Positions 25,355-30,393 of a DNA stretch of 64,000 nucleotides are shown here, piece after piece. This DNA is from an uncultured Bacilli bacterium. Lineage in GTDB: Bacteria; Bacillota_I; Bacilli_A; RF39; UBA660. Position 1 is the stretch's first letter. Each line of letters opens with the position of its first letter. The notes beneath the pieces were generated by a model. It was given only the letters and a program-made list of their open reading frames with translations, did no database searches and had not been told where the DNA came from. A program made the position numbers and the translations under genes. The stretch lies in assembly GCA_934096735.1 (NCBI GenBank), contig CAKOMS010000003.1, positions 7,298 through 71,297 of the forward strand, written 5' to 3'.

Positions 25355-26695
25355 ATGAGAATAGCAATTAATAACGAAGGAAAAGTTTTTCATTTAAGTA
25401 ATAATAAAATAGAAAAGTTAGATAATAGTATAATTGAAAGTAATATAAAGCTTTCACTTATTGATAAGTGTTTAAAACCAAGAAGTATGATTATGGTTAA
25501 TAAAAAAACAAATGATATTATTTTTGAAACATCTGAGATTTATCCACAACATTTTTATCCTTTAACTATTTTAGATTATGCAAATGCAATAAAAAGATCA
25601 ATGAAAAGTGATATAGATAATTTACCGATATTATCTATTAGTACTAAAGATTATCCATTTTGTGATTTTAGATGTAGAGAATGTTTAGCAGATCCTACTA
25701 GAATGTGGGCTATTAAAAATATAGATAAATGTGTTTTGGGATTAGAAGAATATAAAAAAATATTAAAAGAAATATCTAGATATTCTAAAAAAAGAGGATG
25801 TAATTCTGTAAGACTTGAAATATGTGGTGAAGGTAATCCAGACATGTATATTCATAGAAAAGAAATAATTAAATATGCTAAAGAAGAATGTAATATGGGA
25901 ATAGTATATATTTCTACTGGAAGCAAGTTAGATGAAGAAGCAATGGAAACATTATGTAAATATGCATCTTATATAAGGATTAGTTTACCTGGTATTTCAG
26001 ATGAGGCTTATACTTATTATAGTAATCAACTTAAAAATGATTTTACTTTTTCTGATTCTATGAAGTTATTAAAAAAATTATGTGAACTTAGAAAAAAATA
26101 TAATAGAGAAAATGAACTTATGATAGGAGTTAGAACTTGTATTAGACAAAAGAACGAAGGACATTATTTAGAACTTTCTAAAATACTTGGAGATATGGGT
26201 GTAGATAGTTTTCAAATGGTTAAAGTACTTACTGATGAAATTGAAGATAAGAAAGATATTGAACTTAGTGAAAGAACTCAAAATGATTTAATTATGCTTA
26301 CAAAGAAATATAAATCTTTAGGACTTAAACATATTCAAACTCCTAAGTTATTAGATAAACTTTATATTAATAGAGAGTTTATTAAAAATAGAAAACCTAC
26401 TAAATGTTTTTCTTCACTTGTTAGTCCAATTTTGTATGGTAATAGTTTAATTGTATGTATACATTGGGATAAAATAAGAGATAAAGAGAATGCTTATTAT
26501 GGAAAACTTACTGGTAAAAGAGGAGAACTTGAGAAGATTATGCAAGGAGAGAGAGCTAAAAGTATAAGATCAAATTATCCTTTAAAATGTCATGATTGTT
26601 GTGCTTTGAATGATAATTTAATGTTAGAAGTTATAAGAAGTAATTTAGCATTATTTAATGATATTGATATAGTAGATTTTATGTTAGTTTATTAA
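25355..26695 (+). CDS. radical SAM enzyme, unknown substrate
   Basis: 446 aa; CDFRCRECLADP (CX3CX2C), a CGEGNP glycine-rich motif, and extra C-terminal cysteines (KCHDCCALND). RBS aggag. Confidence 0.75.
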   Translation: MRIAINNEGKVFHLSNNKIEKLDNSIIESNIKLSLIDKCLKPRSMIMVNKKTNDIIFETSEIYPQHFYPLTILDYANAIKRSMKSDIDNLPILSISTKDYPFCDFRCRECLADPTRMWAIKNIDKCVLGLEEYKKILKEISRYSKKRGCNSVRLEICGEGNPDMYIHRKEIIKYAKEECNMGIVYISTGSKLDEEAMETLCKYASYIRISLPGISDEAYTYYSNQLKNDFTFSDSMKLLKKLCELRKKYNRENELMIGVRTCIRQKNEGHYLELSKILGDMGVDSFQMVKVLTDEIEDKKDIELSERTQNDLIMLTKKYKSLGLKHIQTPKLLDKLYINREFIKNRKPTKCFSSLVSPILYGNSLIVCIHWDKIRDKENAYYGKLTGKRGELEKIMQGERAKSIRSNYPLKCHDCCALNDNLMLEVIRSNLALFNDIDIVDFMLVY

Positions 26696-26715
26696 TGTAG
26701 TATAGGGGGTAATAT

Positions 26716-27450: not shown

Positions 27451-29785
27451 AAAAGAAGTAAACGAAGTAAAAAAACAAGCAGTAAGTAATAATTTAAGTG
27501 AACTTGAAGTGGTTAAATTATTATGTTTAAAGATATCTAAATATTTTTATAGAGATGAAACTTTCTTTTTATATAAAGAAAATTTAAAGAGTAGGAGTAG
27601 TATTTATAATAGAGAAAATATAGATGACTGTAGTGTTACTTGTAATTCTTTATGTAAGTTTTTAAAAGACTTATTGCAAAATGAATTTAGTATTGATTCA
27701 GAAGTTGTTACTATGTATACTGATATGTATGCTCATATGGATTTAATGATAAAGTGTAGAGATGGAAAGAAGTATATTATAAATCCTTTAATGGATTTAA
27801 TTAACTTTAAAACTAATAGGAAGTCTCAATATTTTGGAACATATTATTACTATAGTGAGTTTAAAGAATTTATCCAAGATATTAGTTATTTGAGTGAAAA
27901 AGAAATTAGTTTAATTGATAAACATATTGGATTTAATTATAAGAGTGATGTAGATGAAAATATGGATTTAAATAAAGAAAATATTTTAAAAGTAATTACT
28001 CATATTTTAAATAATAGTGAAAATTTAAATGGGTTTGTTGATTTTTTAGTATATGCTAATTTAGAATTTAAAATTGCTTTTGGGAAAAATATTTTTATAG
28101 ATGATTTTTATTTAGAAGATGAAGAAGATTTATTTAGGGATTATAAATTATTTAGAAGTAATGGTAAACAAAGAGGACTTTCAGTTAAATTTAATGATAC
28201 AGTTTATATATTTACAGTAGGTAATAAATGTATTAAAGAAATTAGTTTAGAAGAGTGGAATAATACTTTAGATAAAAGAAATGTTATTGTTAATGAATAT
28301 ATTGCTATGGAAAACATATCTAAATTAAAGTCTTTTGGAATAAATAGAAATATTATACATAATAAAGAATTTTTAAAAATTTTTAAAAAATATGAAGATA
28401 TGGCTTTAGATAATGGAGATAATATATTAGATTTTATTAGTTATACTAATACTTCTATAAGAATTACTTATAATTGTGATTTAACTTTTTATATTAAAGA
28501 TAATGAACTTGTTTATATAGATGGTAATACTAAGAAGAAAACTACTGTTAGTTATGTAGAAGAGAATGTATCACAAAAAAGAAGTGAGTTAGTAGAAAGT
28601 GATACTTATAATAAAGAAGAAGAATTTTTAAGAAGAACTGATATTTTGGGAATATTTGACATGGATGTAACAGATAGTTCTGTAATTCCTTATTTAACAG
28701 AATTTAAAGATAGATTTTTATCTAGAAATTATCAAGAATATTATGTATTTTATAGTAAAGAAGATTTAATAAGAAGAAGAGAAAAGTTAGTAAATTTACT
28801 ATTAAAGGGAAGTAATTTAAGTATAAGTGAAAAATATGTTATTTTAGATAATATATTAAATATATCTGCTAGATTATATTATTTATCTATAGTATCATCA
28901 ATAAAGGTTCGAGATGAGAAAATAGTTAGAGATACTTATAGTACTTTTGTAAGTGATATTACGAATTATATTAATTTTATTGAAGGGTTAGATTTTGATT
29001 TTAATTTTGGTAGTTTTAGAGATTTTGGGGGATTAACATCTAGTCAAGAGAGTATGTTATTAGAAAAAAAGAGTCAAATTGAACTTGATAATAAAATACA
29101 TTTATTTAATTACTTAAAAGGATTAAATAATGTTATTGATGAAAGTGCTTTAAAAAATTATGCATTTGTTACACCAGGGTTTGGTTCACTTTATATAGGG
29201 CCATTTTTAACTGCTATGTATGGAAGTTCTTGTACAAATATTTTATATAGTCAGTATAAGAAAACTGGTATAGAAGAAATTGATACAAGGAGTTCTTCAG
29301 AACTTTTAGTAGCAGATCCAACTTTATTAAATGGTAAAAAGATTATTTTAATTGATGATAATATGGGAACTGGTTTAACTTTAAAAAATATTAGAAGTTT
29401 ATTAGATAAAGAGAATCATCATGTTGTTCTAAGTGGGGCTTATCAATATACTTTTGATAGATTACAAGAGTTCTTTATTAAAAGTAGAGATCAAGAAGTA
29501 TTTGATCCTACTAGTGTTGATCTTTTAAGTCCTTTTAATTATCCAAGACATCAAATAAATGAAACTGCTAAAGAAAAATTAGGTGTATCAGGAGAAGAAT
29601 ATGTTAATTATTTAAGAAAGTTTGGATATCATGGAGATAAAATACCTGATTATGATAGATTAATTAAAGATGCAGAGTTTTATCATGAAAGATTTAGAGG
29701 AATTGAGATTTTTAAAGATGATGAATTAAAGGATACTAGTAAAGAGTTAATTAGAAAGTTATTATTTAATGGGAGGAAGAAATGA
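27434..29785 (+). CDS. fusion protein: N-terminal transglutaminase-like (Cys-His-Asp) region and C-terminal phosphoribosyltransferase-like domain
   Basis: N-terminal CSVTCNSLCKFL...YAHMDLMI...INPLMD resembles a transglutaminase-like core. C-terminal GKKIILIDDNMGTGLTL resembles the PRTase PRPP-binding loop. The start overlaps the previous stop. Confidence 0.45.
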   Translation: MMNYIKKEVNEVKKQAVSNNLSELEVVKLLCLKISKYFYRDETFFLYKENLKSRSSIYNRENIDDCSVTCNSLCKFLKDLLQNEFSIDSEVVTMYTDMYAHMDLMIKCRDGKKYIINPLMDLINFKTNRKSQYFGTYYYYSEFKEFIQDISYLSEKEISLIDKHIGFNYKSDVDENMDLNKENILKVITHILNNSENLNGFVDFLVYANLEFKIAFGKNIFIDDFYLEDEEDLFRDYKLFRSNGKQRGLSVKFNDTVYIFTVGNKCIKEISLEEWNNTLDKRNVIVNEYIAMENISKLKSFGINRNIIHNKEFLKIFKKYEDMALDNGDNILDFISYTNTSIRITYNCDLTFYIKDNELVYIDGNTKKKTTVSYVEENVSQKRSELVESDTYNKEEEFLRRTDILGIFDMDVTDSSVIPYLTEFKDRFLSRNYQEYYVFYSKEDLIRRREKLVNLLLKGSNLSISEKYVILDNILNISARLYYLSIVSSIKVRDEKIVRDTYSTFVSDITNYINFIEGLDFDFNFGSFRDFGGLTSSQESMLLEKKSQIELDNKIHLFNYLKGLNNVIDESALKNYAFVTPGFGSLYIGPFLTAMYGSSCTNILYSQYKKTGIEEIDTRSSSELLVADPTLLNGKKIILIDDNMGTGLTLKNIRSLLDKENHHVVLSGAYQYTFDRLQEFFIKSRDQEVFDPTSVDLLSPFNYPRHQINETAKEKLGVSGEEYVNYLRKFGYHGDKIPDYDRLIKDAEFYHERFRGIEIFKDDELKDTSKELIRKLLFNGRKK

Positions 29786-30393
29786 GTAAGTATAAAAAGG
29801 AATTGCTAGAATATAGAGAATTTAAGAAGAATTTTAAATATGATTTATTAGAAGTTATTGAAAAAGATGGAAATAGTTATTTAGATGGTGAACTTATAAA
29901 AAATAGTAATGGAATGATTGGTGAGGGTAATAAGTGGATTAACGTAGGTTATTCTTTAAAAGGTAAGTTTCCTAAGTTATTATCAAATTTATTTCCTTAT
30001 AAATTTAAGTTTAGAGGTTATACTTTAAATTCTATAGAATGTTTTTTTCAAGGTATAAAGTTTAAATCAAAAAAGATGCAAAAGAAAATATTTAAGTATA
30101 GTGGTAAAGAAGCTTTAGTACTTGGAGAAACAACTGATTATGATTGGAAAGAATCTGGTTATATTTATTTTATGGGTAAAAAGATTTTAAGAGATTCAAA
30201 AGAATATGATGATATTATTGATGAGTTATATATAAGTGCGATTCAAAATGAATTTTATAGAGAAGCTTTAAAAAATTGTAAATTACCTATTGTACATATT
30301 ATAGGAGAAAGTAATAAGGAAGATACAACTTTTACTAGATATGAATTTGAATATATGTTGAATTCTTTAAGAAGTTTTTTAAATAAAAAGTAG
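29782..30393 (+). CDS. NADAR (YbiA/DUF1768)-like protein
   Basis: LSNLFPYKFKFRGYTLNSIECFFQGIKF resembles the NADAR motif SNF.P..f...G..y.s.EhyfQa.Kf. ATGA overlap with the upstream gene. Confidence 0.5.
   Translation: MSKYKKELLEYREFKKNFKYDLLEVIEKDGNSYLDGELIKNSNGMIGEGNKWINVGYSLKGKFPKLLSNLFPYKFKFRGYTLNSIECFFQGIKFKSKKMQKKIFKYSGKEALVLGETTDYDWKESGYIYFMGKKILRDSKEYDDIIDELYISAIQNEFYREALKNCKLPIVHIIGESNKEDTTFTRYEFEYMLNSLRSFLNKK

Follow-up and report, generated by a model that had tools for sequence, protein, structure and literature searches.

A cassette of four tightly packed genes, probably completed by a fifth, lies in a 64,000-nt stretch of DNA from an uncultured Bacilli bacterium (contig CAKOMS010000003.1; subsequently designated the window). 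The four genes encode a radical S-adenosylmethionine enzyme (rSAM), a HIT-like protein, a 783-aa protein joining a putative transglutaminase-like Cys-His-Asp domain to a type-I phosphoribosyltransferase (PRTase) domain, and a NADAR protein; the probable fifth, located upstream, encodes an SGNH/GDSL-type esterase. As judged from sequence comparisons, the cassette is real, conserved and rare, and it is absent from the curated libraries and the literature that we searched. Our preferred, tentative reading is that it represents a self-contained mobile module acting on nucleotides or ribosyl linkages, by which an unusual nucleotide modification is probably made or reversed, and which may work as a conflict (defence-type) system, possibly against phages. 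An earlier note on this DNA had offered three possible roles, namely modification of a neighboring glycoprotein, a nucleoside-derived metabolite pathway and a conflict system; the last is the best-supported of these options and is unproven.

The window is a segment of a Firmicute chromosome with 25% G+C and a strongly positive GC skew, in which the plus strand holds nearly all genes. Direct reading of the sequence found the four genes and their overlaps exactly as the earlier note had described them (Table 1). The rSAM gene is separated from the HIT-like gene by a 20-nt gap carrying a GGGGG ribosome-binding site, the HIT-like gene and the gene of the 783-aa protein overlap by 17 nt, and the latter shares an ATGA overlap with the NADAR gene (29782–29785), which is preceded by GGGAGGAAG. 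The SGNH gene, which the note had overlooked as a cassette member, ends 17 nt ahead of the rSAM start, with an AGGAG site at this junction. A five-gene operon might begin at a promoter-like site directly ahead of the SGNH gene, but the evidence for this is weak, as promoter-like matches in the region are as frequent in a consensus scan as expected from shuffled sequence. The promoter and terminator scan of the region yielded no signal above the shuffled expectation, and a terminator was not found.

Table 1. Coordinates of the cassette genes, of the domains of the 783-aa protein and of the promoter-like site in the window.
Feature	Position	Strand	Remarks
Promoter-like site	24654–24682	+	TATACA, 17-nt spacer, TG-extended TAGAAT; directly precedes the SGNH gene
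SGNH/GDSL-type hydrolase gene	24699–25337	+	212 aa; probable fifth cassette member
Radical SAM (rSAM) gene	25355–26695	+	446 aa
HIT-like gene	26716–27450	+	244 aa
Cys-His-Asp/PRTase gene	27434–29785	+	783 aa
Domain 1 (aa 1–215), papain/transglutaminase-like	27434–28078	+	candidate triad C70, H101, D121
Middle part, beta-rich (aa 216–392) and helical linker (aa 393–572)	28079–29149	+	secondary structure of the AlphaFold2 (AF2) model
C-terminal type-I PRTase domain (aa 573–783)	29150–29785	+	PRPP loop IILIDDNMGTGLT with D641, D642
NADAR gene	29782–30393	+	203 aa

At least ten unrelated flanking contexts hold these four genes with order and overlaps unchanged, and therefore their arrangement is not a product of chance. 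These contexts (loci L001, L004, L005, L007, L009, L010, L011, L014, L025 and the window) comprise contigs encoding homologues of the 783-aa protein as well as genome loci reached via the rSAM enzyme and hidden Markov models (HMMs) built in this analysis. Only nine clusters homologous to the 783-aa protein exist among 5.8 billion proteins, and every contig encoding such a homologue also carries the rSAM, 244-aa HIT-like and Phage_30_3 (NADAR) genes with the order kept. Hence, the neighborhood check on which the earlier note had made its grouping depend came out in its favor. The flanks of the cassette include SpoIVA/Der, RuvAB/LexA, PrfA/PrmC, ScpAB, TsaD and a restriction-modification locus; since these contexts vary, the pattern is that of an accessory unit that may move between genomes, consistent with horizontal mobility. 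In 6 of the 10 contexts the SGNH gene is present as well, and its orthologues are located immediately upstream of the rSAM gene in L001, L005, L009, L010 and L011. Two of these loci carry shortened genes: in L011 (2120–3301) the rSAM is reduced to 393 aa and followed by a 170-nt gap, and the SGNH gene of L001 (7428–7928; 166 aa) lacks the N-terminal catalytic block. Both may be decaying copies, or reflect assembly or frameshift errors. A phage origin of the cassette was also considered and rejected, as a scan of IMG/VR for the rSAM family returned no relative. The note had further not recognized the gene set as any characterized pathway, which agrees with our searches of Pfam, NCBIfam, PHROGs and PADLOC, where only superfamily-level or sub-threshold matches were obtained, and with literature searches, in which no description of the cassette was found.

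The product of the last gene is the one most readily assigned. It matches the Pfam family Phage_30_3 (PF08010) with 93.4 bits against a cutoff of 36 (E 1.4e-26), tblastn connects it to the 30.3 genes of T4-like phages, and hhalign aligns its family to T4 gp30.3 with a probability of 97.9% (E 4.6e-13). The activity of gp30.3, also named AdfN, and the roles of its catalytic Glu and Lys residues have been described (PMC11825919). In alignment A9, E36 and K43 of the T4 protein fall on E86 and K93 of the window protein, both of which are invariant in the family. The hhalign result and the position of these residues confirm the predicted membership in the NADAR superfamily, gp30.3/AdfN type, and the description as NADAR-like in the earlier note was thus appropriate. 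The cassette protein possesses an additional N-terminal extension of ~65 aa.

The 783-aa protein ends in a predicted type-I PRTase domain. In the AlphaFold model of the whole protein (predicted local distance difference test (pLDDT) score 79), Foldseek retrieved OPRT, APRT, HGXPRT, PurF and PurR as top PRTase matches with probabilities of 0.9–1.0 (1.0 for OPRT, APRT, HGXPRT and PurF) and E-values of ~1e-2. The loop for binding of phosphoribosyl pyrophosphate (PRPP), IILIDDNMGTGLT, contains the acidic pair typical of such loops, and D641, D642, G645, T646, G647 and T649 are invariant. Fold and loop agree with the PRTase domain proposed earlier from the sequence. The Pfam model Pribosyltran (PF00156) scores the window protein at 21.1 bits (E 2.1e-4), below its cutoff of 26.3, and matches 10 of 29 relatives (best E 2e-5). 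As Foldseek recognized only the PRTase domain in the whole model, a second AF2 model comprising aa 1–405 was needed, which reached a pLDDT of 85.8 and a predicted TM-score (pTM) of 0.82.

For the N-terminal domain, the claim of a transglutaminase-like Cys-His-Asp region was upheld with respect to the triad: across 46 distant relatives C70 never varies, and H101 and D121 each show conservation of at least 90%. Helix 70–85 of the model begins with C70, while H101 lies just ahead of strand 103–107 and D121 behind strand 113–116, which is the placement seen in transglutaminase-like and papain-like enzymes. The family assignment is less secure. Foldseek with aa 1–405 returned a single transglutaminase match (4xz7; probability 0.99–1.0, E 0.03–0.06) with a TM-score of only 0.23–0.25, and Pfam Transglut_core matches one of the 46 relatives (E 0.0019) and not the window protein. 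A search of viral structures (BFVD) with the N-terminal part was uninformative. This part has 69 representatives among 1.84 billion proteins, and in two of its relatives, P0290 (723 aa) and P0304 (424 aa), the Cys-His-Asp domain is preceded by a fused alpha/beta hydrolase, which ties an esterase function to this domain. The middle part gave only low-probability polo-box matches in Foldseek and was assigned to no family; with mean pairwise identities of 43% for the beta-rich and 49% for the helical domain it is the fastest-evolving segment of the cassette. In L046 and L034 the protein is split into two genes at approximately aa 405.

The first gene of the original four encodes a 446-aa radical SAM enzyme, as stated by the earlier note: Pfam PF04055 matches with 34.4 bits against a gathering threshold of 29.5 (E 3e-8), and the cluster motif C103-x3-C107-x2-C110 is invariant in 18 diverse homologues. 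The core, which also contains a GEGNPD motif, is preceded by an N-terminal domain of ~95 aa. Five additional cysteines are conserved in the same homologues (C262 and, in the C-terminal region, C351, C368, C412 and C415), which suggests that the enzyme carries an auxiliary Fe-S cluster; no SPASM model of Pfam or NCBIfam matched. The best-scoring named family is viperin (NF038283, 36.6 bits, E 2.7e-9, cutoff 180), with the match confined to the rSAM core, and the PADLOC pVip model scores 40.3 bits (E 5.9e-11). Neither the sequence nor the family profile matched any rSAM structure in the PDB. With ~123 clusters among the 5.8 billion proteins, the enzyme defines a new, rare family. The esterase encoded upstream passes the Pfam Lipase_GDSL cutoff (PF00657; 24.1 versus 23.6 bits) and contains the SGNH blocks YGDSNTWGD, GTNDL and DGIH.

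The 244-aa protein had been described as a HIT fold lacking the histidine triad. Loss of the triad is evident: the HxHxHxx signature with its nucleophilic central histidine is replaced by H108-W-R110-Q-W112, in which the central position is occupied by arginine (alignment A7). The HIT fold itself is plausible and was detected by sub-threshold matches only. Pfam PF01230 yields 14.7 bits (E 0.051) against a gathering threshold of 21.5, HIT matches occur in 10 of 39 relatives (best E 0.0019), and the weak HIT matches in the PDB share one register with those of Pfam. The protein has features of the HIT superfamily (Hint/GalT-like) in the same order, i.e. an N-terminal CxxC motif (C19, C22), P-x-x-x-G-[FH]-x-x-[VI] and the beta-strand at the triad position, but it differs by the H-W-R-x-W sequence, by an insert of ~80 aa (aa 118–200) and by a conserved family-specific C-terminal motif, NFGRGKNLKNITNYAK. 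The family is closed, comprising 128 clusters with no other annotation; a match to EAD10 (E 0.01, 2 of 39 members) was treated as noise. When all four proteins were searched singly against the PDB by sequence, only weak HIT and PRTase signals were seen, and profile searches with the NADAR, HIT-like, rSAM and N-terminal-domain families revealed nothing beyond these.

To judge from these assignments, the cassette proteins and their relatives all handle nucleotides, ribose phosphates or N-ribosyl bonds, and several known systems invite comparison. DS-32 is a validated anti-phage pair of E. coli, composed of a PRTase gene followed by an overlapping NADAR gene, for which its authors propose a toxin/antitoxin (TA)-like logic and 'TA partner swapping' (bioRxiv 10.1101/2025.01.08.631726; PMC13092281). 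In this pair (WP_000097610.1 and WP_032260665.1), DS-32A extends from 48629 to ~49660 and DS-32B begins at 49650. The cassette shows the same succession of a type-I PRTase-domain gene and an overlapping NADAR gene, and both are made up of accessory genes; however, the PRTase of the cassette forms the C-terminal end of a larger protein (783 aa) in which the Cys-His-Asp domain is found as well, its NADAR is of the gp30.3/AdfN type, and there are three further partners (rSAM, HIT-like protein and esterase). With T4 gp30.3/AdfN and with DarT1-NADAR (DarTG1) the cassette shares a homologous NADAR that keeps Glu and Lys, i.e. a putative eraser of N-ribosyl linkages. In contrast to gp30.3, the cassette gene is cellular, has the 65-aa extension and is partnered with a PRTase. 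Prokaryotic viperins (pVips) resemble the cassette rSAM as radical SAM enzymes of the best-scoring named family, and linkage to nucleotide kinases is found among the rSAM relatives and for some pVips; the score is far below the cutoff, however, and the cassette enzyme has the 95-aa N-terminal domain and the five additional cysteines, which suggest an auxiliary Fe-S cluster that viperins are not known to possess. Finally, ShosTA and type III retrons employ a type-I PRTase-like domain as presumed defence effector, and the PADLOC ShosT model matches the cassette (E 7.9e-5). This match covers the PRPP loop only (aa 626–665), and the cassette possesses no ShosA/DprA-like partner, reverse transcriptase or msr/msd.

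If the cassette is a conflict system, its PRTase domain would place a 5-phosphoribosyl group derived from PRPP on a target nitrogen, which could belong to a nucleobase, a nucleotide or a base within nucleic acid, and the NADAR N-glycosidase would cut this ribosyl linkage off, thus serving as antidote or reset enzyme as in DarT-NADAR and DS-32. The rSAM, distantly viperin-like and probably equipped with a second Fe-S cluster, would make a modified nucleotide, either to arm or trigger the system or as the actual active product. As the nucleophilic histidine is replaced by arginine, the HIT-like protein may bind this nucleotide without covalent catalysis, and the Cys-His-Asp domain and the SGNH esterase might act on an acyl or amide group of the substrate or target, either removing it or transferring it. 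We favor a conflict function for several reasons. First, the coupling of PRTase and NADAR is strict: both are adjacent in 23 of 23 loci (see below) and joined by the ATGA overlap, there is the precedent of DS-32, and the catalytic residues of NADAR are intact. Second, the best named matches of the rSAM are viperin models and the PRTase loop matches ShosT. Third, the genomic positions are varied, consistent with horizontal mobility, and defence genes are neighbors at some loci. Fourth, the proteins evolve at widely differing rates, a pattern typical of conflict proteins: mean identity is 77% for rSAM and 73% for NADAR, but only 52% for the esterase and 49% for the 783-aa protein. Fifth, the architecture is modular, as domains are split and fused and the esterase is swapped non-homologously.

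The architectures of the wider family emerged from clustering the neighbors of 55 non-redundant rSAM loci. The rSAM family ranges over gut Bacilli/Mollicutes-like lineages, metagenome-assembled genomes (MAGs) of Clostridia, one alphaproteobacterial MAG and a few DPANN archaea. A HIT module (24 loci) combines the HIT-like protein with the Cys-His-Asp protein, an esterase and usually PRTase and NADAR, the latter being encoded at 23 of the 55 loci and always next to the PRTase-bearing gene. The esterase is of the SGNH type in window-type loci; in Clostridia-type loci a non-homologous alpha/beta hydrolase occupies its place. The Clostridia-type loci also encode a long HIT-like protein that has gained a WG-repeat N-terminus, and a short HIT paralogue with the sequence N-L-H-I-N-F-I-P-R, in which the central histidine is retained. 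In five of them (L041, L043, L044, L048 and L051), large open reading frames (ORFs) resembling serine recombinases (family f13, read from sequence) are located upstream of the rSAM gene, which hints at carriage on integrative elements. A second-rSAM module (21 loci) consists of a small second rSAM and a degenerate rSAM paralogue, often together with a guanylate-kinase-like protein, a Metallophos_2 metallophosphoesterase, NUDIX, a family 2 glycosyltransferase (GT2) and DUF4422. Both modules never occur together (0 of 55 loci). In a few loci the second-rSAM module is found with a PHP phosphatase, small kinases and a 783-aa protein divided into its N- and C-terminal parts. A second conserved architecture is apparent in L016–L029 and L052 (e.g. 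L023, 4094–10997), where the rSAM is surrounded by NUDIX, a degenerate rSAM paralogue without CxxxCxxC, a guanylate-kinase-like protein, Metallophos_2, two small ORFs (150–200 aa), a small second rSAM, GT2 and DUF4422. This architecture, which is likewise undescribed, has the appearance of a biosynthetic cluster for nucleotide tailoring. DPANN-type MAGs (Nanoarchaeota, Woesearchaeota and Micrarchaeota; L054, L057–L060) carry a minimal trio of rSAM, small second rSAM and degenerate paralogue, which may be the ancestral core of the family.

These associations bear on a somewhat unlikely alternative, i.e. that the cassette synthesizes an unusual nucleoside or nucleotide(-sugar) metabolite that is not primarily antiviral, for instance a secreted antimetabolite or a decoration of the cell envelope. 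NADAR would then free the base or ribose-5-phosphate from a nucleotide, the rSAM would carry out difficult C-H or C-C chemistry, the PRTase would re-ribosylate the modified base with PRPP, the HIT-like protein would handle a nucleotidyl intermediate, and the Cys-His-Asp domain and esterase would tailor acyl or amide groups. Biosynthesis accords with the 21 loci of the second-rSAM module, with further loci that link the rSAM to a PHP nucleotidase-like phosphatase, a P-loop kinase, an aldo-keto reductase fusion and a pyruvate-kinase-like protein, and with a GT2 family (f6) that recurs in 14 loci across three architectures. It also accords with the three loci that hold the PRTase part without NADAR and with the chiefly housekeeping flanks of the cassette. 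Moreover, characterized NADAR/YbiA enzymes also cleave free ribosylamino-pyrimidine phosphates, according to work cited in PMC9503650. However, the window-type cassette encodes no kinase, glycosyltransferase, transporter or regulator, and as the two modules are mutually exclusive, inference from the other cluster types is indirect. In addition, the 783-aa protein evolves far faster than the rSAM, which is unusual for a pathway enzyme, and the HIT-like protein has lost its nucleophilic histidine.

Several observations weigh against a conflict function of the cassette. The three loci with PRTase and no NADAR imply that the PRTase need not be toxic, and the wider rSAM family resides in the biosynthetic-looking clusters described above (second rSAM, kinase-like protein, phosphoesterase, NUDIX, GT2, DUF4422). 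Most flanks of the cassette consist of housekeeping genes, and recognizable defence genes flank only ~3 of 25 loci. A PADLOC scan of 150 flanking proteins detected mostly generic helicases and desulfurases, with convincing defence neighbors at three loci only (a type II restriction endonuclease and a GmrSD-like gene in L004, PDC-S01 in L046 and mad2 in L049), and hence the argument from a 'defence island' is weak. No instance of the same flanks without the cassette was found: all five to six contigs of the window species carry it, and thus presence/absence polymorphism is not seen. Homology to DS-32A and DS-32B was not detectable by hhalign (probabilities of 0.15% and 0.37%), where only the catalytic motifs align. 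Searches with Pfam, PADLOC and NCBIfam found no DarT-like ADP-ribosyltransferase among the cassette proteins, which sets them apart from DarTG1, and the likeness to viperin is limited to the level of the rSAM core, with 36.6 of the 180 bits that the family demands. Given the missing DS-32 homology and DarT toxin, the viperin score below the cutoff and a ShosT match confined to the loop, the cassette is, on present sequence evidence, not placed in the DS-32, DarTG1, ShosT or viperin families.

The genomic setting also speaks to a further reading, which we consider improbable, namely salvage or catabolism of a complex modified nucleoside or an ADP-ribose-like compound by gut bacteria with reduced genomes. 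In this case the esterase/amidase might strip decorations, NADAR might cut the N-glycosidic bond, the rSAM might break a stable bond of the base and the PRTase might return the base to the nucleotide pool. Queuosine salvage, which employs a nucleoside hydrolase and a radical SAM lyase, provides an analogy. The range of the family, limited to gut-associated small-genome Bacilli/Mollicutes-like lineages, Clostridia MAGs and few DPANN archaea, fits such a role, as do the presence of the cassette in every contig of the window species and the neighbors, which serve housekeeping or the house-cleaning of nucleotides (Ham1, NUDIX, nucleoside phosphorylases and NT5C in L005 and L010). The window likewise has a Ham1/ITPase-like house-cleaning gene near the cassette (20884–21441, minus strand; read from the translated sequence). 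On the other hand, no conserved importer accompanies the cassette, its occurrence is very patchy and rare, as reflected by the nine clusters of the 783-aa protein and the 69 representatives of its N-terminal part, the genomic position varies and the large protein diverges quickly. The flanks of L010 contain two Ham1, three NUDIX and two nucleoside phosphorylase genes; such Ham1/NUDIX neighbors possibly connect the cassette, if weakly, with the hygiene of non-canonical nucleotides.

The remaining role envisaged by the earlier note, supply of a nucleotide-activated sugar or modification for a neighboring collagen-like glycoprotein, appears very improbable. Directly upstream of the cassette, the window does contain a BclA-type collagen-like ORF of 246 aa with a long GXT/GXQ repeat run (22747–23487, minus strand) and a gene for a GT2 glycosyltransferase with tetratricopeptide repeats (GT2-TPR; 23590–24663, plus strand), which matches PHROG 13126 ('beta-1,4-glycosyltransferase') with an E-value of 1e-116. 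Both are a possible glycoprotein/glycosyltransferase pair, and the rSAM family is tied to other GT2 genes in other architectures. However, both genes adjoin the cassette only in contigs of the same species, neither is a neighbor of the cassette in the nine other window-type loci, and the GT2 of the window did not cluster with the recurrent family f6. The link of the collagen-like and GT2 genes to the cassette is therefore largely refuted by missing co-conservation.

Downstream of the cassette, two ORFs of 207 and 626 aa (30452–33102, plus strand), each with an N-terminal hydrophobic segment and no family match, are followed by a sortase gene (33186–34814, minus strand) whose product carries ~370 aa ahead of the sortase domain, which is an unusually long extension. 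The region 30452–34814 may be a pilus or surface-protein locus. A T-box leader (35531–35723; Rfam RF00230, 111 bits) is located upstream of the ORF at 35758–37257.

The rSAM family is nearly confined to uncultured gut Bacilli, Clostridia and DPANN archaea, and would therefore have been missed by screens based on E. coli. Viperin chemistry has already provided antiviral chain terminators, and the consistent linkage of the rSAM family to kinases, phosphatases, PRTases and N-glycosidases suggests that nucleotides undergo a new kind of radical chemistry. A bolder and unlikely extension of our reading is that the cassette and the wider rSAM family form an unrecognized nucleotide-modifying class, in which an rSAM with two Fe-S clusters would create a new modified nucleotide or ribosyl compound, and a phosphoribosyl mark on a base of a nucleotide or nucleic acid would be written by the PRTase and erased by NADAR, with use in immunity. 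If PRTase and NADAR are indeed such a writer/eraser pair, the cassette would be natural evidence of reversible phosphoribosylation as a switch or weapon, and would provide a second, independent and much richer case beside the mechanistically unexplained DS-32. Uncultured gut Firmicutes would then possess a PRPP-dependent counterpart of reversible ADP-ribosylation for immunity.

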